Made by a program: the position numbers and the translations under genes. The notes beneath the pieces are model-generated. The model made no database searches. It had not been told where the DNA came from and saw only the letters and a program-made list of their open reading frames with translations. Below are positions 2,183 to 46,337 of a stretch of 64,000 bases of DNA, in pieces. The stretch covers positions 270,742-334,741 of the forward strand of contig JAKAJD010000001.1 in assembly GCA_021813945.1 (NCBI GenBank), written 5' to 3'. The DNA is from a bacterium (GTDB lineage Bacteria > Patescibacteriota > Microgenomatia > Curtissbacterales > GWA2-41-24). Each line of letters starts with the position of its first letter. The stretch's first letter is position 1.

Positions 2183-2962
2183 CTATAAATCAATTTCCAG
2201 CTCTGCAATAACAGGCAAGTGATCAGATACTGTAATTTCGGGTACCGTAATCGAATTAAGTTTAAACTCCGCTGAAGCAAATATGTAATCGATCAAAAAA
2301 CCCAATGGCGCAATTTTGTGAACCTTTAAATTAGTTGTAACCTTTGCATCGGCTTGAATCATAAGATTATTGGCAACTTTCCCTATCAATTCGACAGTTT
2401 TGCTAGTCATAACTGCATTTAAATCTCCGCCCAAAATGAATGGATCATTAAGTTTTTTCAGATAATCGTAGACCATATTAGCCTGCCGCATAGTCTCTGC
2501 TGTATCCTGAGGAGGAGCAGTCCAAGCGCCGTGCCAGGACATAATGTGAAAGTCAGAGCCATGAAAGTTTACAACTGCATCCAAAAGACTGCGGCCAATT
2601 TGCTCACGAATCTCACCGGACTCTCCGTCTAGCTCCTCGTTTGTAACAGCTCTAAAACTCTTAAGTACCAAAGAATTCTTGCCCACCATTTTATGCTTAC
2701 TAAAAACTGCATTTCCGAACCTGGCTTTTTCGTCACCAATCAGTTTTAAATCTCCGTTATAAACACCACCCACTCCTAATTTAGAACCAAGCACGGCAAA
2801 AATATCCTTGTTGTCTCCTTCATACAAACTAAATCCGCTAGTGGTAACTTCCTGCATGGTCACAAAATCAGGATCTTCTTTTTTCAAAAAATCCACAAGC
2901 GTATCCAGGTAGCGGCCTTTATAAATATTTATCTGGACAATCTTTATCTTGTAGGTGGACAT
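2183..2962 (-). CDS. Endonuclease/exonuclease/phosphatase (EEP) family protein
   Basis: 259 aa. 'DFVTMQEV' N-terminal motif and C-terminal 'SDHLPVIAEL' are typical of the EEP fold (sphingomyelinase/DNase I-like). Confidence 0.75.
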   Translation of the reverse strand: MSTYKIKIVQINIYKGRYLDTLVDFLKKEDPDFVTMQEVTTSGFSLYEGDNKDIFAVLGSKLGVGGVYNGDLKLIGDEKARFGNAVFSKHKMVGKNSLVLKSFRAVTNEELDGESGEIREQIGRSLLDAVVNFHGSDFHIMSWHGAWTAPPQDTAETMRQANMVYDYLKKLNDPFILGGDLNAVMTSKTVELIGKVANNLMIQADAKVTTNLKVHKIAPLGFLIDYIFASAEFKLNSITVPEITVSDHLPVIAELEIDL

Positions 2963-2977
2963 TGCTAAAATAAAATT

Positions 2978-3424
2978 ATGAGACGCGGATTTGTCTTACC
3001 GATAATTATATTACTATTCGTTGTCGGAGTAACATATTTTATCTACGCAAAATATTCAAAATCACCTAACGAAAAAACAATGCAAACCGCATCAACAATA
3101 TATAAATATCCCAACAGTACGTCTTGGGAGATAAAGCCGCACCACAACCTTTGCGTCAATCCCAAAGATTCATGCGTTCAGCCTGCAGATATTATATTCA
3201 CCACTAATAACCAATGGGCAGAAATATACGCTTATTACAAAAGTTATTTGATAGATTACGGTTGGGAAACAAATAGTACGGTTTATACATCAATACCAAC
3301 CGGCATAGTATTCGAAAAAGAGGACTGTAAGTTGTTCTTACAACCAGCAGAAGGCGTTAACTTCTTGAGTGACAAAGCTGCAAAACCTCCCTACAAATTC
3401 ACATTTAGTGTTACTTGCCAGTAA
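2978..3424 (+). CDS. Hypothetical protein with N-terminal signal anchor
   Basis: 148 aa. N-terminal hydrophobic helix 'FVLPIIILLFVVGVTYFIY'. No recognisable motif. Confidence 0.4.
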   Translation: MRRGFVLPIIILLFVVGVTYFIYAKYSKSPNEKTMQTASTIYKYPNSTSWEIKPHHNLCVNPKDSCVQPADIIFTTNNQWAEIYAYYKSYLIDYGWETNSTVYTSIPTGIVFEKEDCKLFLQPAEGVNFLSDKAAKPPYKFTFSVTCQ

Positions 3425-3426
3425 GC

Positions 3427-4164
3427 TTAAGCAGCCATAGTTCCTTTTTCAAAAACGATATTTGCAAGCTTATTCAAATTTGAAACGCCAAAGCGGGAAA
3501 TAGCTCTATGTGCCATGCTTTCAGCTTCTCTCAAAAAGGCTTCTTCGCTAGAAAAACCGGACCAAGGCAGCGAAACTGCAATTCTGGCTTTTGCCCTCGC
3601 GCTAGCCATATCGGCACCAATTCCTGAGGGCTTATCACCACTCATAATCGCTGCGATTTTCCCACCATAACTTATAGCAGCACTTTGTAAAAGCCATCTA
3701 TCAAATCTCAAGCCGGCAGGAGGTATACACTCAGTTAGGCCCAGATAATAACCATTTGGAACATTAGTCATTGAGGCGACATGCCAACCACAAACGGCCG
3801 CAACAACACCGTGACCACCCTCATGCCTAGCAACAGAAATTCTAAGTATGTCCTCTTCTGCTTCCTTATTAAGCTCGTCATATAAACCGTCATCCAAAAT
3901 AGAGACTATCAGCTCATTGCCCAAAATTAGTTTATCCTCAATACCGGCCGCTTCGCGCGTTTTGCAAAGGTTCTCGTATCGACTGGCTACTTTTTCCTTA
4001 AGCTGGCCCGGATCCTGGCCTTGAACAATCGAGCGAAAATTAGCAAGATTTACACCTTCTGCAACGGGGAGCCCGGAAAACGCGTCAAATACCTGATCAC
4101 GCTTCTGACGGTACGCAGCTAAATCAACAATATTTGGACCTAAACGCTCACTCATGAACCCCAT
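3427..4164 (-). CDS. Stand-alone FtsH-like (peptidase M41) zinc metalloprotease domain protein
   Basis: 245 aa. 'HEGGHGVVAA' matches the HExxH zinc site. The downstream 'SYGGKIAAIMSGDKPSGIGADMASARAKARIAV' block aligns with the FtsH protease-domain 'LGGRAAEE..FG..TTGA.NDL..AT.IAR' region. It has no AAA+ module and no TM segment. The segment is visibly more GC-rich than its surroundings. Confidence 0.55.
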   Translation of the reverse strand: MGFMSERLGPNIVDLAAYRQKRDQVFDAFSGLPVAEGVNLANFRSIVQGQDPGQLKEKVASRYENLCKTREAAGIEDKLILGNELIVSILDDGLYDELNKEAEEDILRISVARHEGGHGVVAAVCGWHVASMTNVPNGYYLGLTECIPPAGLRFDRWLLQSAAISYGGKIAAIMSGDKPSGIGADMASARAKARIAVSLPWSGFSSEEAFLREAESMAHRAISRFGVSNLNKLANIVFEKGTMAA

Positions 4165-4243
4165 ATTTTACCTCAAAACCATTGATTTTTCTAAAATTTG
4201 GGTTTAAAGTTAACTAATCTTAAGCAAAAAGGGGGTGATTTAA

Positions 4244-4681
4244 ATGGCTGCAAAATCAGTAAACCAAATCGACACAACTTTAGAAGATTTTTTCAAGAAG
4301 ATGCCCCCTTTACCGCCCAACGCAGTTGACGCAATTTTCAAAATTACACCATGGTTAGCTTTAATCTTTGGTATTTTAGGAGTAATTGGAGCACTTTCCG
4401 CATTCGGAATTCTAACAGCGCTGTCTCCATTTGCCATGATGGCAGGAGCACACAACTGGGGTCTTGGCATCTTCGCAGCAGTTGGATGGCTTGTATCAAG
4501 CGTCCTTATGCTTATTGCATATCCCGGCCTTAAAGCCGGCAAAATGAACGGCTGGAACATGTTATTTTGGAGCGAAGCGGTAAACGTGGTTGCGTCGGTT
4601 ATAGGTATTTCCATATCAAGCATCATCGGTGCGGCAATTGGTTTTTACCTTATCTACCAAATCAAACCAAAGTACAAGTAA
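4244..4681 (+). CDS. Small integral membrane protein (unknown function)
   Basis: 145 aa, about 4 TM helices. Strong RBS 'AAGGGGGTGA' lies 6-8 nt upstream of the ATG. Confidence 0.55.
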   Translation: MAAKSVNQIDTTLEDFFKKMPPLPPNAVDAIFKITPWLALIFGILGVIGALSAFGILTALSPFAMMAGAHNWGLGIFAAVGWLVSSVLMLIAYPGLKAGKMNGWNMLFWSEAVNVVASVIGISISSIIGAAIGFYLIYQIKPKYK

Positions 4682-37834: not shown

Positions 37835-37917
37835 GCCGAAGTGGCGGAATGGCAGACGCGCAGCGTTCAGGACGCTGTGGGCATTTGCCCGTGGAGGTTC
37901 GACTCCTCTCTTCGGCA
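37835..37917 (+). tRNA. tRNA-Leu (anticodon CAG)
   Basis: GCCGAAGTGGCGGAATGGCAGACGCG CAGCGtTCAGGAcGCTG with a long variable arm and GGAGGTTCGACTCCTCTCTTCGGCA. Confidence 0.85.
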
Positions 37918-37929
37918 CAAAAGTGGCGA

Positions 37930-38011
37930 GCGGTCGTGGCGGAATTGGTATACGCGTACGCTTGAGGTGCGTATCCCGCAAGGGTTGGAGGTTCGAGTCC
38001 TCTCGACCGCA
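37930..38011 (+). tRNA. tRNA-Leu (anticodon GAG)
   Basis: GCGGTCGTGGCGGAATTGGTATACGCG TACGCtTGAGGtGCGTA with a long variable arm and GGAGGTTCGAGTCCTCTCGACCGCA. Confidence 0.85.
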
Positions 38012-38016
38012 CAGAG

Positions 38017-38451
38017 ATGCCTGTACACAAGTTAGATACTAAAGTCTATTTTGGTCAAAAAGCCTTCATTGTTAAAAATGGCAAGCTTTTGGTCTTGAGA
38101 GATCCAAATTCCGTCATTGGTGGACAATCTGGAATAGACATGCCTGGTGGGAAATTCCGGTGGGGTGGAAATCTTGGGGAGGAGCTCCGGAGGGAAGTAA
38201 AAGAAGAGACTAATCTAGAGATCGAAATAGGAGACCCTATTGTTGTCTATACCTATTTTGGAGACAGGAGAAAAACTGGCACATCTAGCCATACAGTTTT
38301 AGTCGGGTACTTATGCAAATACAAGTCTGGCGAGGTAACTTTATCTGAAGAACACGATAGTTATGAATGGGTGGATAAAAAAACCTACAAGAATTGGGCC
38401 GACAAAACAGAAACTTACAGGGCTGTAGAAAAATTCTTTAAGGGCACTTAG
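38017..38451 (+). CDS. NUDIX hydrolase
   Basis: Nudix box 'GGKFRWGGNLGEELRREVKEETNLEI'. The stop overlaps the start of tRNA-Val. Confidence 0.7.
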   Translation: MPVHKLDTKVYFGQKAFIVKNGKLLVLRDPNSVIGGQSGIDMPGGKFRWGGNLGEELRREVKEETNLEIEIGDPIVVYTYFGDRRKTGTSSHTVLVGYLCKYKSGEVTLSEEHDSYEWVDKKTYKNWADKTETYRAVEKFFKGT

Positions 38452-38515
38452 CTCAGCTGGTTAGAGCGTCTCGTTTACACCGAGAAGGTCGGGGGTTCGA
38501 ATCCCTCAGTGCCCA
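38442..38515 (+). tRNA. tRNA-Val (anticodon TAC)
   Basis: GGGCACTTAGCTCAGCTGGTTAGAGCG TCTCGtTTACAcCGAGA AGGTCGGGGGTTCGAATCCCTCAGTGCCCA. Confidence 0.85.
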
Positions 38516-38520
38516 CAATT

Positions 38521-39944: not shown

Positions 39945-40520
39945 ATGCAGTATACTTCTTGCTTTGTTGGAATACCGCTTCCAGACAAATTTCAAAACGA
40001 GTTTGAAAAAACCTTAGATAAAGTTAAGAAACTATACCCAAATTGGCAAATTGTATATCCAAAAACGCCGCACGTAACCGTCTATTATCTGGACAAACAA
40101 TCACAAAGCGTCCTACCCCAAATTGCACGCGCTGTCTCGAAAGAAACTCGATTGATTAAAAGTATTTCCCTAAAAGTCCAAGGCTTCGATTTTTTCGCAA
40201 AAGAAGATTCAAGGCAGGGAATAATTTTTTTGAATGTAATTTACCCTACAGCATTTGAAAATTTTAACCACACGCTAACCAATAAATTAAACAATTATCA
40301 CGCAGTAGACAACAACCTGCCATTTCATCCGCATGTAACCATCGCCAGAATTAACGAACCTGGTGGCGATTCAAATTTAAAAAATTCAGTAAAGCTTCTT
40401 AATTCAAAAATCGATCAAATTAATTGGGAATTCGCCATAAACGAAGTTGCAATTTATGGTGTAAATTCAAGAATTCAACCGCAGAGCCAAAAGAGGTTAA
40501 TATCGATAAAATTTGGTTGA
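39945..40520 (+). CDS. 2H phosphoesterase superfamily (LigT/2'-5' RNA ligase-like)
   Basis: Two HxT/SxV motifs, 'HVTVYY' and 'HPHVTIAR'. 191 aa. Confidence 0.65.
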   Translation: MQYTSCFVGIPLPDKFQNEFEKTLDKVKKLYPNWQIVYPKTPHVTVYYLDKQSQSVLPQIARAVSKETRLIKSISLKVQGFDFFAKEDSRQGIIFLNVIYPTAFENFNHTLTNKLNNYHAVDNNLPFHPHVTIARINEPGGDSNLKNSVKLLNSKIDQINWEFAINEVAIYGVNSRIQPQSQKRLISIKFG

Positions 40521-40524
40521 TATT

Positions 40525-41649
40525 TCAAACCACACCAGCCCCTACTGCTTCTGAAATATTTTTGAACCCATCGGTTTTCAGTCTATCCGAAAGCCCTAGG
40601 TTAATTTGCGCAATAAGCTGCGGCCCAACAAAAATCATACCGGTTATAAGTTCTACCAATTGCGCACCTTTTTTAATCTTTATGTAAGCATCCTCGGCAC
40701 TAAAAACACCCCCGCAACCTACAATTACAAACCGGTCTTTGAAATTGCGGTAAGCCAGTTCTATCAGCTCATTAGATCTTTGCCAGGTAGCCTTGCCACT
40801 AAAATTTCCTACTTTGAATTTTTTTGCCTCTTTTTTATCCAAAGCCGGGTCATTCCTATTGGTCTGCAAATTTCCAAATATCACCCCGGCTATTTTGTGC
40901 TTTGAGGCAACATTAAGAAGCGCGAGTGTCAGTTGATTCGATTTAGTAATCGGCATTTTTAAAAAAATTGGCTTTTTCACTTTAACCTTATCAAGAGTTT
41001 CTAAAAGCAAATCGAGTTTTTTAGGTTCATAAAAGGTCACATTCCCAGACAGGTTTGGACAACTGATATTTAGTTCGTAGTAACTATTAGAAACTTTTGC
41101 TGATTCAAAAATTTTAAAAGCGGAAACGACATCTCTTACACTTTCCGCTTGGCCTAAATTTGGATTATTTGTTCTTCCAACACTTATCCCAACAGGAATA
41201 TCAAACATCATCCTTTTAAGTTTAGTTGATATCGCGCGGGCGCCTGTATTCTTAAAACCTTTATTAACCATCAGCGATTTAGACTTCGGTAGCCTTCCTA
41301 ACATTGGCTTAGGATTTCCTTCGTAAGAATTATTGGTAATCGTCCCAACACTATGGAACCCAAACCCCAAAGTTGGCGTGATCTGTGTAAGCCGTGCTTC
41401 ATAATCAAAACCTGCAGAAAGGCCAATAGGGGAATAAAACTTTATCCCCAAAATCTTTTGTGAAATGTTTTTATCTTTATTAGAAAGAACTGCTGCGAAG
41501 ATTTTTTCTAAAAGTCCGACTTTTCCTAAAAATTCACCGACACCAGTTATTGAATTATGAACAACTTCGGCATCTATTCTAAAAGCGATTTGCTTAAAGA
41601 TAAATTTGTATAAAATTTCAAAAAGAAAAAGTATAAATTTTCTTGCCAC
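40525..41649 (-). CDS. pyrD: Dihydroorotate dehydrogenase (quinone, class 2)
   Basis: 'GFDYEARLTQI', 'GFGFHSVGTIT' and 'GNPKPMLGRL', plus C-terminal 'VGCGGVFSAEDAYIKIKKGAQLVELITGMIFVGP'. N-terminal membrane-association helix. Confidence 0.8.
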   Translation of the reverse strand: MARKFILFLFEILYKFIFKQIAFRIDAEVVHNSITGVGEFLGKVGLLEKIFAAVLSNKDKNISQKILGIKFYSPIGLSAGFDYEARLTQITPTLGFGFHSVGTITNNSYEGNPKPMLGRLPKSKSLMVNKGFKNTGARAISTKLKRMMFDIPVGISVGRTNNPNLGQAESVRDVVSAFKIFESAKVSNSYYELNISCPNLSGNVTFYEPKKLDLLLETLDKVKVKKPIFLKMPITKSNQLTLALLNVASKHKIAGVIFGNLQTNRNDPALDKKEAKKFKVGNFSGKATWQRSNELIELAYRNFKDRFVIVGCGGVFSAEDAYIKIKKGAQLVELITGMIFVGPQLIAQINLGLSDRLKTDGFKNISEAVGAGVV

Positions 41650-41715
41650 AGCAAGATTTTAGCTCGCTACGATAAACAAATCAAAATGTATTGAGTTCGG
41701 CGTTTACGCAAGAAG

Positions 41716-42351
41716 TTAATTAGCGCTAGATTTAGTCGCTGAAATAGAAATTCCAAAAGCATCAGCAGCCTCAACCAAGCTCCTTCTAAGAAGAGCATAT
41801 TCCATTCTAGTCATCTCATCCCTGGGAAGGGAATCAATTTCAAAGCGCCTCGGCCCACGATTGTCGACACGCAAATCGTAGGTCTGGTCAAAATACAAAG
41901 TGAAATTCATACCCAAACCGTCATCAAATGTAAATTTTGGGTAATGCTCCAAGCCTCTTGCCCCTTGCTGCTCATATGCATGTGGCTCGGCACTGACAGA
42001 AATTCTTTGGGGATATCCGTCTTCGCCCGAAATTAACGTTTCGTCCCAAAATATCTCATGATCAGTATTGCAAAAATCAGGGTGTTCGCTTGCATCATGA
42101 CCGTTTACCTTCAGCCATTCACGCATTTTCCTAACAATGTCCATAAGCTCATCTTTTTCACTTTCGAAAACTGTTTCCGGTTCTTCACCAAAAAAAGCAG
42201 ACTGAACCGTTCTTGACCATTCGTCGGGAGTTGTCCTGCGATATTCAGGAAACTGGCCATTGACCGATCGGATTGCAGCAATAGCATCAACCGCTCTATA
42301 AGTTCGCTCAACCATTCGGGAAATTATATTACTTCGCTTACACAAAGACAA
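41716..42351 (-). CDS. Hypothetical protein (GC-rich cassette, downstream gene)
   Basis: 211 aa, acidic, no motif recognised. Confidence 0.45.
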   Translation of the reverse strand: MSLCKRSNIISRMVERTYRAVDAIAAIRSVNGQFPEYRRTTPDEWSRTVQSAFFGEEPETVFESEKDELMDIVRKMREWLKVNGHDASEHPDFCNTDHEIFWDETLISGEDGYPQRISVSAEPHAYEQQGARGLEHYPKFTFDDGLGMNFTLYFDQTYDLRVDNRGPRRFEIDSLPRDEMTRMEYALLRRSLVEAADAFGISISATKSSAN

Positions 42352-42371
42352 GCTACCCTAACCAACTTTAC

Positions 42372-43229
42372 CTATCTGGGGGAAAGGCGTGCCACATCCT
42401 TGAGAAATGGGAGGGAAGTCACACTTTCTTCTCCTAAAAGCACCCCGAACACTGCTTCCGGCTGATGAATCCTTATCAAACGATGACCGTGATTTGCGTC
42501 GGGACCCTCTTGTCCGTTTGGATAGTCATTTCTCACTATAATATTCCCGATACTGAAGCCAAAATGGTTAATAAACCCGTTATAAACTCTCTGCAGAGTA
42601 GAGTCATCATTTAGCGTAAGTCTATTTTCCACATTGCTGAGTCTGGCAACCAACGCACCCATTAAAAAGGGTGAAAAGCGGGATCTTGCATTTAGAAATC
42701 TTGCGCTGGGGCGCGGATCGAGCATAAAATCGAATCTTTCTGGATCAACATAAATTCTAAGTTCGTCCTGGCCTTCATGAATTTCTCCCCAAGTACCTAC
42801 TGTTGTTTTAAGTAATTCTCTCTTTTCCGGCCTGTCAGATTCAGTACCAACCATTACATAATGTGTCCTACTCCAATTAACCCGTTCGACTTGAAGTCTT
42901 CCCTGCGCAAGACCCACAAAAAAGGCCTTTTGGTTCAAAGGCAACTCGCCATGTCGAACTTCAGGAAGCGGCCTGGTATAAATATCATGTTCCCTAAATT
43001 TTTTCTCGACAGTTCTCGGGTGCAAGTGGAAAAGTTCTGCAAGCTCGTCAAGTGTATATATCTGGCCGGTTCGAGGATTAGTGCATCGTCTCAAGCGAAC
43101 AAGCAAAGTGTCGGTTGCCTTCCTTTGCTCTTCAGGCGATACCTTGCAAACGCGAGGTGGAGGAAGAGGTGCCTCTTCAACATCCGGTACAACAAGATGT
43201 AAATATGCTCTTTCAGCGACAGCTGTCAC
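42372..43229 (-). CDS. Hypothetical protein with N-terminal HTH and two degenerate LAGLIDADG-like repeats (GC-rich cassette, upstream gene)
   Basis: HTH-like 'TGQIYTLDELAELFHLHPRTVEKKF'. Repeats 'FFVGLAQGRL' and 'FLMGALVARL' lie about 90 aa apart. The acidic catalytic residues of true LAGLIDADG are absent. Confidence 0.4.
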   Translation of the reverse strand: MTAVAERAYLHLVVPDVEEAPLPPPRVCKVSPEEQRKATDTLLVRLRRCTNPRTGQIYTLDELAELFHLHPRTVEKKFREHDIYTRPLPEVRHGELPLNQKAFFVGLAQGRLQVERVNWSRTHYVMVGTESDRPEKRELLKTTVGTWGEIHEGQDELRIYVDPERFDFMLDPRPSARFLNARSRFSPFLMGALVARLSNVENRLTLNDDSTLQRVYNGFINHFGFSIGNIIVRNDYPNGQEGPDANHGHRLIRIHQPEAVFGVLLGEESVTSLPFLKDVARLSPR

Positions 43230-43266
43230 TATCTAATAATAGTCAGAAATCTAAAAAATTCAAAGG

Positions 43267-43338
43267 AGCGGGTGATGGGGATCGAACCCACGCTCTTCCA
43301 CTTGGCAAGCGGACGTTTTACCACTAAACTACACCCGC
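43267..43338 (-). tRNA. tRNA-Gly (anticodon GCC)
   Basis: Reverse complement reads GCGGGTGTAGTTTAGTGGTAAAACG TCCGCtTGCCAaGTGGA AGAGCGTGGGTTCGATCCCCATCACCCGCT. Confidence 0.85.
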
Positions 43339-43442
43339 GAAATCAAACAAAATTATATCTCAGGCAAAAACTTTCGACAACTGCAAAAATTTTGATCTGG
43401 ATCGTCCATATGGTAAAATAGCAACTCAATCGCCAAGCACGC

Positions 43443-44111
43443 TTGGCTTTTTATATGCAAAAAAGAGGAAAAACACTCCGTTTGCCCCCTAATTTGACAC
43501 GAAAGTTCATTCATGCAATAGTAGTTCTAGAAAAGCGCATGTTCAAAAAACTTGCCCTTGGGTTTGCCTGGCTTGCAATTACCCCAGTATTAATTCTCAC
43601 ACTGGGTTTTTACGTAGCCTCCCAAAAATCCCAAACTGCATCATCCCAAAAACTTCAAGCTTCCCTTAATAGTCAAAACTTAGACATAGACAACACTATA
43701 AGCGGCCAGGTCTTAGGTGAAAAAATAACAGATATGAGGCCAATTTTGGTATCAGATTTTCTTAAAGGAACACCTCTTGCACCATATTCTAAATACATGG
43801 TAGAGGTTGCCGACAAATACGATATCGACTACCGCCTTATTCCGGCAATAGCCATGAAAGAATCAGGCGGGGGAGCAGCTGTAAATCAGGCAACCCATAA
43901 TGCATGGGGTTTTGAAAATGGCAGCACAAAATTCGAAAGCTGGGAGGCAGCAATAGATATTGTGGGAAAAACTCTCAAAAACCGCTATATAGCAAAAGGT
44001 TTGACGACCCCGGAACAAATTATGGCCGTTTACGCTCCGCCAGCGCTTGCTACAGGCGGTCAATGGGCAAAAGACATCAATTACTACTTCTCCCAAATGC
44101 AAATCCTCTAA
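43443..44111 (+). CDS. Glucosaminidase-domain peptidoglycan hydrolase (FlgJ/lysozyme-like)
   Basis: 'LIPAIAMKESGGGAAVNQATHNAWG' resembles the glucosaminidase 'A.A.LESGWG' motif. Signal anchor. The true start may be the internal Met 'MFKKLALGF' at about 43539. Confidence 0.5.
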   Translation: MAFYMQKRGKTLRLPPNLTRKFIHAIVVLEKRMFKKLALGFAWLAITPVLILTLGFYVASQKSQTASSQKLQASLNSQNLDIDNTISGQVLGEKITDMRPILVSDFLKGTPLAPYSKYMVEVADKYDIDYRLIPAIAMKESGGGAAVNQATHNAWGFENGSTKFESWEAAIDIVGKTLKNRYIAKGLTTPEQIMAVYAPPALATGGQWAKDINYYFSQMQIL

Positions 44112-44151: not shown

Positions 44152-45531
44152 ATGGATCTTCGACAATATCTTGCCCTTGCTATAGGAAAATTAGCACAGT
44201 TTATGCTTAAAATCTCAGGTTCGGGTGCAACAGCAGCACCTGGGCTAATTGCCCTAAAAATTGATCCAAATCTGGTAAAAAAACTTTCTTCAAAAATCCC
44301 ACAAGGATCAATAATCATCTCGGGCACAAATGGCAAAACAACAACGGCTCGACTTATCTTCGATATGCTTTCTAAAAATTACGCAATTGTTCACAACAGG
44401 CAAGGTTCAAACCTTATGCGCGGAATTGCATCCGCCCTTATATCAAAAGCAAATCCCACTGGAAATATCAAAGCAGATTTGGCCGTTTGGGAAATAGATG
44501 AAGCTACGCTGCCTCAAGCAATTGATTCGACAAACCCTAAAACAATCGTCCTTCTAAACTTATTCCGGGATCAACTCGACAGGTACGGAGAAGTAGAAAT
44601 TACCCGCAAAAAATGGCAGGAAGCCTTAACAAACCTTCCAAAGGAAACAACACTAATCTTAAACGCAGACGACCCCGGAATCGCCAGTCTTTCAAAAATA
44701 ACCAAGGCTAAAATGGTAACTTTTGGCATAAAAGATCACAAAATATCTCGTGGCAATCAAACAGGCGTTCTAGACATAAAAAGCTGCCCGATTTGCCAGG
44801 GAAAACTAGACTATAAATCTTATACGCTGGGCCATCTTGGCGAATATTTGTGTACCAAATGCGGTTTCAAAAAACCTAATCTTCAACTCTTTGCATCGGA
44901 CATTGATCAAGCTAAAGATTTTTCGACCTCTATGAATTTGGTGCTTGGAGCAAAAAAAATTAAAATTAAGTACAAACTGCCTGGAATCTATAATGCTTAC
45001 AATATCTTGGCCTCAGCAGCTGTCGGCCAAACATACGCACTATCACCAAAAGATATCGCCAAATCAACCGAAAACTTTTCTCCTGTTTTTGGCCGTTTTC
45101 AGTCTGTGCAAATAGGGAACAAATCAGTCTTGATCTTTTTAATAAAAAACCCGACAGGTGCAAACGAGGTTGTCAAAGTCCTTTCTCAGCAAAGCGCCCT
45201 AAACCTGCTTGTTATCCTAAACGATAACTTTGCAGACGGAAGGGATGTTTCCTGGATTTGGGATACAAAGTGGGAAGCACTCTCCCAAAAAACCAAGAAG
45301 CTGACGATATCAGGAACACGTGCCTGGGATATGGCAACACGCTTAAAATACGCAAACTTCAATTTGAGTAAAAATAATGTTTATGAACAAATTGAAACCT
45401 CAATCGAAGCTGCGACAACTGCATTGAGCAACAATGATACTCTAGTAATTCTGCCTACTTACACTGCTTTGATGCCGGTTGAAAAATCACTAAGTAAGTA
45501 CACAAAAATAGTCAAATGGCACAAACAGTAG
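44152..45531 (+). CDS. murT: Lipid II isoglutaminyl synthase, Mur-ligase-like subunit MurT
   Basis: P-loop 'GTNGKTTTARLI'. Cys4 ribbon 'CPICQGKL...CTKCG'. C-terminal DUF1727-like domain. Followed by gatD. Confidence 0.8.
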   Translation: MDLRQYLALAIGKLAQFMLKISGSGATAAPGLIALKIDPNLVKKLSSKIPQGSIIISGTNGKTTTARLIFDMLSKNYAIVHNRQGSNLMRGIASALISKANPTGNIKADLAVWEIDEATLPQAIDSTNPKTIVLLNLFRDQLDRYGEVEITRKKWQEALTNLPKETTLILNADDPGIASLSKITKAKMVTFGIKDHKISRGNQTGVLDIKSCPICQGKLDYKSYTLGHLGEYLCTKCGFKKPNLQLFASDIDQAKDFSTSMNLVLGAKKIKIKYKLPGIYNAYNILASAAVGQTYALSPKDIAKSTENFSPVFGRFQSVQIGNKSVLIFLIKNPTGANEVVKVLSQQSALNLLVILNDNFADGRDVSWIWDTKWEALSQKTKKLTISGTRAWDMATRLKYANFNLSKNNVYEQIETSIEAATTALSNNDTLVILPTYTALMPVEKSLSKYTKIVKWHKQ

Positions 45532-46337
45532 AAGGTCTAAACTTAAAACTCAAGGGTCAAAAGTTTTCCTTGAATATCTGCCATCTTTATCCGGACCTCA
45601 TGGATACCTATGGCGATAAAGGAAATATATTGGCAATCATTTACCGTTGCCAAAAACGCGGGATTGATGTCAGTCTTGAAGAAGTTTCAGTCAATCAACC
45701 ACTGACAACTAATATCTACGACCTTTTCTTTTTCGGTGGAGGGCAAGACCAAGCCCAATCGATAGTTGGAGAAGATTTACTAAAAAAGTCGGATGTTCTC
45801 AAAAAATATATTGATAGCGGATCGGCGCTTCTATCAATTTGTGGTGGTTACCAGCTCCTGCAGAAATACTTTCAGACAAAAGAGGGGCAAAAAATTCCCG
45901 GAATTGGCCTTTTTGATGCTTATACAATTGGCTCAAACGACCGCATGATCCAAAATTTGTTGATCGAAACAGACGGATCACTTCAAACACAAATTGAAAG
46001 CGCATATCCGTCAAACGATTTGCCATCAACTAGTCTTATCGGTTTCGAAAACCATTCGGGAAAAACTTATTTGGGAAAAAGCCTTAAGCCCTTGGGGTCA
46101 GTTTTGGCAGGCAGCGGGAATAACGGAGAAGACAGTACCGAAGGCGCGATTTACAAGAATGCCTTCGGATGCTATTTGCATGGTTCACTTCTTCCCAAAA
46201 ATCCGCACTTTGCAGACTTTCTGATCGCAAAAGCACTTGAGAAAAACTACGGTCCTGTCAATCTTGAACCGCTTGACGACGAAATCGAATGGCAAGCCCA
46301 CAACAAAGCAGTGGAATTAACTCGCGCTTCAAGCTAG
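45516..46337 (+). CDS. gatD: Lipid II isoglutaminyl synthase glutaminase subunit GatD (CobB/CobQ-like GATase)
   Basis: Catalytic Cys in 'LSICGGYQLL' and His in 'GCYLHGSLL'. It overlaps the murT end by 16 nt. Confidence 0.8.
   Translation: MAQTVEGLNLKLKGQKFSLNICHLYPDLMDTYGDKGNILAIIYRCQKRGIDVSLEEVSVNQPLTTNIYDLFFFGGGQDQAQSIVGEDLLKKSDVLKKYIDSGSALLSICGGYQLLQKYFQTKEGQKIPGIGLFDAYTIGSNDRMIQNLLIETDGSLQTQIESAYPSNDLPSTSLIGFENHSGKTYLGKSLKPLGSVLAGSGNNGEDSTEGAIYKNAFGCYLHGSLLPKNPHFADFLIAKALEKNYGPVNLEPLDDEIEWQAHNKAVELTRASS

Follow-up and report, generated by a model that had tools for sequence, protein, structure and literature searches.

A predicted family of helix-turn-helix-tethered, catalytically dead LAGLIDADG proteins in bacteria of the candidate phyla radiation

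Within the 64,000-nt stretch of contig JAKAJD010000001.1 analysed here (hereafter the window, whose numbering is used for all coordinates), a gene for a protein of 285 amino acids, orf285, lies between a tRNA gene and pyrD. The genes of the locus are all on the minus strand, in the order tRNA-Gly(GCC) (43265..43338; ARAGORN, with 70.8 bits in Rfam), a 35-nt spacer, orf285 (42372..43229), a 56-nt spacer, orf199 (41716..42315), a 66-nt spacer and pyrD (40525..41649), which encodes dihydroorotate dehydrogenase (Pfam DHO_dh, E 8.8e-46) and served as the anchor for our synteny comparison. Our subject is orf285, in which an N-terminal helix-turn-helix (HTH) domain is predicted to precede a catalytically dead, two-domain LAGLIDADG scaffold, and the family to which it belongs. 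A first-pass annotation had placed two unknown proteins of 285 and 211 amino acids 38 nt downstream of the tRNA gene. The adjacency, the shared strand and the length of 285 amino acids all stand, but the gap between the tRNA gene and the GTG start of orf285 at 43229 measures 35 nt by ARAGORN and 37 nt by Rfam, and the second protein has 199 amino acids from ATG 42315, as judged from public gene callers and from its homolog. GTG 43229 is the sole in-frame start of orf285 upstream of the conserved helix that begins at residue 32. The exact orf285 protein is present on a 976-kb contig of the candidate phyla radiation (CPR)/Patescibacteria type in public assemblies, three other assemblies have 100% DNA identity to the locus, and the closest relatives of its pyrD carry the labels Levyibacteriota, Roizmanbacteria or Patescibacteria group.

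Fold and former active sites of orf285

Searches with the single orf285 sequence against Pfam, NCBIfam, PHROGs, PADLOC and PDB (phmmer) gave nothing except a weak Pfam HTH_17 match (E 0.012, residues 58-86), with no meaningful match in PHROGs. A word-indexed search with orf285 found three relatives at ~45% identity, and a profile search of 1.84 billion representatives found 87 family clusters at 50% identity. The family alignment of 73 sequences (A2) is the basis of the structural model and of all residue counts below. AlphaFold2 on this alignment produced a confident model of orf285, with a predicted local distance difference test score (pLDDT) of 91.3 and a predicted template modelling score of 0.81; an earlier model from only 4 sequences had been poor (pLDDT 53.6), and Foldseek already matched that model to LAGLIDADG proteins, but at E > 1e-3. 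In the final model the first 30 residues are disordered and are followed by a three-helix HTH at residues 32-80 (42990..43136), whose helices (32-47, 60-67 and 71-80) are modelled at pLDDT ~95, and then by the LAGLIDADG core, whose second domain makes up the C-terminal part of the protein. Domain 1 occupies 42720..42938, with the motif FFVGLAQGRL at 42894-42923, and domain 2 (residues 182-265) occupies 42435..42686, with the motif FLMGALVARL at 42639-42668.

Foldseek comparison with PDB placed the model firmly among LAGLIDADG proteins, which fill the top 50 matches throughout. The first 33 are I-DmoI (E 2e-5 to 4e-4, probability 1.0, template modelling (TM) score to the target 0.5-0.6), the best 35 are I-DmoI or PI-PfuI (E 2e-5 to 9e-4, TM score to the target 0.53-0.60), and later matches include WhiA in a complex with RNA polymerase (8dy7_I), the bI3 maturase, I-SceI, I-OnuI variants and I-AniI. 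Similarly, the best matches in BFVD are phage LAGLIDADG endonucleases, at E 1.8e-6 and over nearly the full length (260-310 alignment columns). The homing-endonuclease fold that the first-pass annotation had proposed to look for by structure prediction is thus recovered, with I-DmoI as the top match. None of this similarity is detectable in hidden Markov model searches of Pfam or PDB: the Pfam models LAGLIDADG_1/2/3 and Hom_end match neither orf285 at E<=1 nor any of the 73 members at E<=0.01, and the 73-sequence profile run against PDB sequences yielded weak matches of HTH type (sigma-70 region 4, a CAP repeat and an archaeal regulator) and no LAGLIDADG protein. Therefore, it took structure prediction to recognise the LAGLIDADG fold. 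As modelled, orf285 is an N-terminal HTH domain joined to an I-DmoI-type LAGLIDADG scaffold, monomeric and with two domains. The HTH-like segment had been noticed at first pass, and it is upheld by the modelled helices, the weak HTH_17 match and matches to HTH_10/23/5/36/24 and Sigma70_r3/r4 in other family members. The regions ahead of the LAGLIDADG core range from ~12 to ~186 residues across the family and match different HTH families from member to member. The module that stays constant is the dead LAGLIDADG core, whereas its DNA-binding head may have been exchanged.

The presence of bI3 maturase and I-AniI among the Foldseek matches (E 2e-3 to 1e-2) raises the question of whether orf285 acts on RNA, as a trans-acting maturase or RNA chaperone whose dead core binds structured RNA such as tRNA precursors or the many ORF-less group I introns of CPR rRNA genes. 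Such a role has precedents in the bI3 maturase and in the organellar LAGLIDADG splicing factors that are encoded in the nucleus. Maturases share the fold, and bI3 has lost its endonuclease activity and kept nucleic-acid binding; a tRNA gene is 35 nt away from orf285, and tRNAs are also found near three relatives. Moreover, many intervening sequences occur in CPR rRNA genes, some of them ORF-less (PMC11270868), and loss of the endonuclease with retention of maturase function is documented (PMC3384342). However, orf285 is not intron-encoded, and Rfam finds only tRNAs, and no group I intron, in the 64-kb window. Unlike the maturases, orf285 carries a conserved N-terminal HTH, which points to DNA; its structural match to I-DmoI, a DNA enzyme, is 100-fold better than those to maturases; and its adjacency to a tRNA is not above what chance would give (see below). 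We regard a maturase role as unlikely.

The residues that I-DmoI uses for catalysis are replaced in orf285. The first-pass annotation had picked out GLAQGRL and GALVARL as LAGLIDADG-like repeats that have lost their catalytic acidic residues, and both are indeed present (residues 106-112 and 191-197), although 85 rather than ~90 residues apart. In the LAGLIDADG register they read FVGLAQG-R111-L and LMGALVA-R196-L, which places R111 (42897-42899) and R196 (42642-42644) at the positions of D20 and E117 of I-DmoI. These two acidic residues are essential for I-DmoI catalysis, and WhiA, with Arg and Gly there, does not cut DNA (PMC3384342). The loss extends over the whole family. In the catalytic column of motif 1 the 73 members have D16, G16, N12, K6, R5 and E3, and in that of motif 2 R33, K15 and E2, so that an acidic residue is found at motif 1 in 19/73, at motif 2 in 2/73 and at both in 0/73. 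In addition, the Gly that follows the acidic residue is changed to F/Y/L family-wide. In the close relatives P0002-P0004, motif 1 still has its Asp (GLAxGD) and motif 2 has Arg. Because no member has the acidic pair and 48/73 have Arg or Lys at motif 2, the whole family is predicted to be non-nucleolytic.

That orf285 might still be an enzyme, a nickase or nuclease working with non-canonical residues, draws on the 19/73 relatives that keep Asp or Glu in motif 1. Single-site LAGLIDADG variants can nick DNA, as the engineered I-SceI and I-AniI nickases do. Yet orf285 itself has Arg at both sites, the adjoining Gly has become a bulky hydrophobic residue throughout the family, and WhiA is inactive with its Arg/Gly pair (PMC3384342). 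We give enzymatic activity very little credence. Of the features of an active LAGLIDADG endonuclease, orf285 has the fold and lacks the acidic residues, a match to curated models and an intron, intein or mobile setting.

Conservation of the rest of the protein speaks for maintenance. Members at 20-45% identity have intact ORFs and keep the core hydrophobic residues, and the Gly of the LAGLIDADG helices is kept in 64/73 (first helix) and 56/73 (second helix). Since such divergence has left ORFs, helix glycines and hydrophobic core intact, the pattern is, on sequence grounds, that of a long-lived non-nuclease protein rather than of a decaying one. What lies at this locus is therefore a member of a CPR family of HTH-tethered, dead LAGLIDADG proteins that falls outside curated models. 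Our literature searches turned up no account of the family, and the only CPR LAGLIDADG genes they turned up were rRNA-intron endonucleases (PMC11270868).

Base composition, genomic context and orf199

The elevated GC content of orf285 and orf199, together with the neighbouring tRNA gene, had led the first-pass annotation to propose a two-gene cassette inserted at a tRNA hot-spot, possibly decayed or non-canonical. Both ORFs are GC-richer than pyrD, as it had stated (45.6% for orf285 and 44.0% for orf199 vs 37.2%; 41.2% for the window and 46.5% for nearby fabD), and the pair ranks at the 96th percentile of the window's 1500-nt windows, a modest excess. However, the excess is confined to codon positions 1 and 2. 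GC content at third codon positions (GC3) is 0.375-0.381 in the two genes, within the host range (0.32-0.40 in the neighbours), and gives no sign of foreign base composition. In fact, the family gene is 1.5-5.6 points GC-richer than its flanks in 8/10 other loci, and its GC3 follows the host. Because GC3 is host-like and the excess recurs in other hosts, the GC signal reflects the amino-acid composition of the family and not a foreign origin.

Other marks of insertion were looked for as well. No integrase or recombinase is found among the neighbours of orf285 (the glucosaminidase-like gene, murT, gatD, pyrD, ligT and the cupin gene). The 22-nt 3' end of tRNA-Gly(GCC), with <=3 mismatches allowed, has apart from itself a single match, the unrelated tRNA-Gly(TCC) at 2069, and 40400-43600 contains no significant direct or inverted repeat; the lack of both integrase and direct repeat, which the first-pass annotation had itself conceded, is thus confirmed. 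No relatives of the family were found in 2.9 million viral contigs (IMG/VR).

A metagenome scan with an alignment of the family (A1) gave 5 family loci, and in all we examined ~12 distinct contexts, every one different: beside ychF/rpsF-ssb-rpsR, ftsZ/fabH, an MFS transporter, hflX and others. The family gene is a stand-alone single gene among housekeeping genes, so far on CPR/Patescibacteria-type contigs only. Four of the ~12 contexts (the window and the loci L008, L091 and L092) have a tRNA within 400 nt of the family gene, tRNA-Gln(CTG) in L008 and L091 and tRNA-Leu(CAG) in L092. The chance of finding a tRNA near a random 850-nt segment is 14% in related loci and 25% in this window, which has 14 tRNA genes in 64 kb (0.22 per kb vs 0.12 per kb in 80 related CPR loci). 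At P ~0.08 the association is within chance, and we rejected it.

Could orf285 nevertheless be the remnant of a selfish element, a homing endonuclease gene, or an island with orf199, that inserted by tRNA-Gly and has since lost both activity and function? Its family is patchily distributed and differently located in each genome; no member is found in any of the 80 related CPR pyrD loci; the closest relative has orf199 and pyrD without orf285 upstream; and GC content is somewhat above the local mean. A GIY-YIG gene stands beside a relative in one locus, and in another a serine recombinase is encoded ~1.1 kb upstream of a relative, with ychF between. Against this, the catalytic pair is intact in none of the 73 members, although every one is full-length and has a confidently predicted fold, which argues for long purifying selection for a non-nuclease role. 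Furthermore, there is no integrase, att repeat or pseudogene feature at the locus, and GC3 is host-like with a GC excess intrinsic to the family. The contexts of pyrD are equally scrambled among the 80 related CPR loci, being conserved only in the closest relative; variable context is the norm in this clade, and the varying context of the family therefore says little on mobility. A decaying selfish element is, in our judgement, improbable. The more specific proposal of a mobile cassette inserted at the tRNA was rejected, since the locus shows neither an integrase nor an att-like repeat, its GC3 resembles that of the host and its two genes do not form a unit; in place of a decayed insertion we find a full-length gene of a conserved, catalytically dead family. 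The locus thus carries a lesson for annotation, in that reading a tRNA-adjacent stretch as an island was tempting but wrong, the GC signal being one of amino-acid composition and tRNA adjacency being common by chance here.

Several of the family contexts have features of their own. In L091 the GIY-YIG protein (78 amino acids, Pfam E 2.4e-16) is encoded at 3263-3499, between the family gene and tRNA-Gln(CTG) at 3540-3611, and two nuclease-derived small genes thus adjoin one tRNA. The recombinase in L094 is a large serine recombinase with Resolvase, Recombinase and Zn_ribbon domains (2691-4286), lying upstream of P0006, and P0007 is followed at a distance of 4 kb by an IS200-type Y1 transposase (L097:9668-10294); neither of the two directly adjoins the family member. 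In L092 the family gene is 120 nt upstream of a tRNA cluster in which tRNA-Leu(CAG) and tRNA-Leu(GAG) come first and one gene separates them from tRNA-Val(TAC). The window has these tRNAs in the same order (L092:760-1427 compared with window 37835-38516), with a peptidase/hydrolase gene in the position of the family gene. The two arrangements suggest that the family gene has changed place between related genomes.

The companion gene, orf199, follows pyrD rather than orf285. Its product is strongly acidic, with an isoelectric point (pI) of 4.7 and a net charge of -15, and among 5.8 billion proteins it matched only itself; Pfam, NCBIfam, PHROG, PADLOC and PDB, the last also searched with a two-sequence profile, contained no match. 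Its sole homolog, which aligns from the Met at 42315, is encoded in the one close relative available, L009 (metagenome-assembled genome WY5.bin133), at 526-1179, with 47% identity. There it lies directly upstream of pyrD (79% identity), and the place of orf285 is taken by an unrelated, divergent ORF without a homolog in the window; the contig ends 490 nt further on. Because this conserved homolog exists, orf199 is a real gene by comparative prediction. Judging by these alignments it is also fast-evolving, changing much faster than pyrD (47% vs 79% identity in L009), lineage-restricted and linked to pyrD rather than to orf285. The longer reading of 211 amino acids (41716..42351) takes TTG 42351 as its start, but this TTG belongs to the -35 hexamer of a promoter-like site (TTGTCT-17-TATAAT, 42323-42351).

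These findings bear on whether orf285 and orf199 form a two-gene module, with orf285 as DNA binder and acidic orf199 as a possible DNA mimic or anti-regulator, in the manner of a regulator-antagonist, toxin-antitoxin-like or defence pair. The two genes are neighbours on one strand, separated by 56 nt, both are lineage-restricted, and a strongly acidic protein is encoded beside one that would bind nucleic acid. But L009 has the orf199 homolog without an adjacent orf285, tblastn found no orf199-like neighbour in any of the ~12 orf285-family loci, orf199 has a promoter-like site of its own, and neither gene has a match in PADLOC. A paired function is most unlikely. The absence of orf285 beside orf199-pyrD in L009 also disposes of the two-gene cassette as a unit.

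Relation to WhiA and a possible regulatory role

WhiA is, to our knowledge, the standard and almost the sole bacterial case of an invasive LAGLIDADG endonuclease turned host DNA-binding factor. The likeness of orf285 to WhiA (DUF199) is one of principle: both are monomeric, two-domain LAGLIDADG scaffolds that lack the metal-binding acidic residues and are tethered to an HTH. At the catalytic positions the WhiA of T. maritima has Arg and Gly where orf285 has Arg and Arg, and the closest solved structure is I-DmoI both for WhiA (PMC3384342) and, by Foldseek, for orf285. Both proteins pair an acidic first LAGLIDADG domain with a basic second one (PMC3384342 for WhiA), domain 1 of orf285 having a net charge of -3. 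There are also differences. The HTH is N-terminal in orf285 (residues 32-80) and C-terminal in WhiA; none of the 73 members matches the Pfam models WhiA_N, LAGLIDADG_WhiA or HTH_WhiA; the structural match of orf285 to WhiA (E 2e-3, TM score 0.44) is weaker than that to I-DmoI; and WhiA is found in nearly all Gram-positive bacteria, in contrast to the rare and scattered orf285 family. Because of the reversed domain order, the lack of WhiA matches in Pfam and the weaker structural match, we conclude that orf285 is WhiA-like in principle without being a member of that family, and that it probably represents an independent domestication.

Comparison with the endonucleases themselves gives likenesses and differences. 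Like I-DmoI and other monomeric enzymes (TM score to the target 0.55-0.60), orf285 has the LAGLIDADG fold and register, with GLAQGR-L in place of a motif of the GD-G type and VAR-L in place of one of the VAE-G type. Unlike I-DmoI, it lacks both catalytic acidic residues, lies in neither an intron nor an intein and has an additional N-terminal HTH. The phage endonucleases that are its best BFVD matches (a putative endonuclease of Bacillus phage PBC2 and LAGLIDADG-like proteins of crAss-like phages) are also encoded by free-standing genes; in contrast to them, orf285 is without catalytic residues, sits in a chromosomal housekeeping context and has no relatives on viral contigs.

WhiA being the known case of a LAGLIDADG fold domesticated in bacteria, we favour by analogy the reading that orf285 is a resident, non-nucleolytic nucleic-acid-binding protein that would regulate transcription, and hold it to be somewhat likelier to be right than wrong. 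Fold, domain order and family-wide catalytic loss come from the analyses above; from these we infer the binding of a DNA site and the regulator role. The HTH would bind a specific DNA site, and the basic second LAGLIDADG domain might also contact DNA with its beta-sheet saddle. The Arg or Lys now found at the old active site probably takes over from the metal ions, bridging either the two LAGLIDADG helices or the DNA backbone. On the same analogy, members of the family are probably DNA-binding regulators. The fuller proposal, that a monomeric LAGLIDADG endonuclease was domesticated a second time and independently as an HTH-tethered, sequence-specific regulator, confined to CPR bacteria, with a domain order opposite to that of WhiA and Arg/Lys in the metal site, we put at slightly less than an even chance.

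Several observations weigh against orf285 as a transcriptional regulator. The role rests on analogy, and any target or regulon would be a prediction. The HTH is only weakly detectable by sequence. The protein is not basic overall, with a pI of 7.2 (family median 9.3) and an acidic domain 1, so that, as with WhiA, DNA binding by its LAGLIDADG saddle is uncertain. Moreover, the family is rare, with its 87 clusters, and has a different genomic context in every genome examined, a combination that would also fit a horizontally moving gene, and the bI3 maturase is among the structural matches, so that orf285 might bind RNA.

If orf285 is a regulator of this kind, a second family with reverse domain order and no detectable sequence relation to WhiA or to curated LAGLIDADG models would mean that domestication along this path can happen more than once. 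CPR bacteria have a small and largely uncharted set of regulators, to which it would contribute a candidate. Naturally inactive, long-evolved LAGLIDADG scaffolds could, in addition, be of some interest as specific DNA-binding modules.

Expression signals and surroundings of the locus

A promoter scan found a promoter-like site (TTGTCG-17-TATAAT) at 43352-43380, upstream of tRNA-Gly, and a terminator scan found no terminator-like site between tRNA-Gly and orf285. Since there is no terminator between the two and a promoter-like site lies upstream of the tRNA gene, co-transcription of orf285 with tRNA-Gly is allowed. There is no Shine-Dalgarno-like sequence at GTG 43229. As read from these elements, the orf285 mRNA may be leaderless, or transcription from the tRNA promoter may read through into orf285. 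The adjacency to tRNA-Gly is probably incidental in a tRNA-dense region and may permit such read-through. A further promoter-like site (TTGAAT-16-TATTAT) is found at 43263-43236, and its -10 element ends 7 nt before the GTG.

The wider surroundings of the locus are of housekeeping character and include fabD, a cupin gene, tRNA-Phe, ligT, a glucosaminidase-like gene, murT and gatD. Downstream of the glucosaminidase-like gene, murT (Mur_ligase_M and MurT_C) and gatD (GATase_3) form a pair at 44152-46337, whose ORFs overlap by 16 nt. The MurT/GatD pair carries out the amidation of peptidoglycan lipid II.

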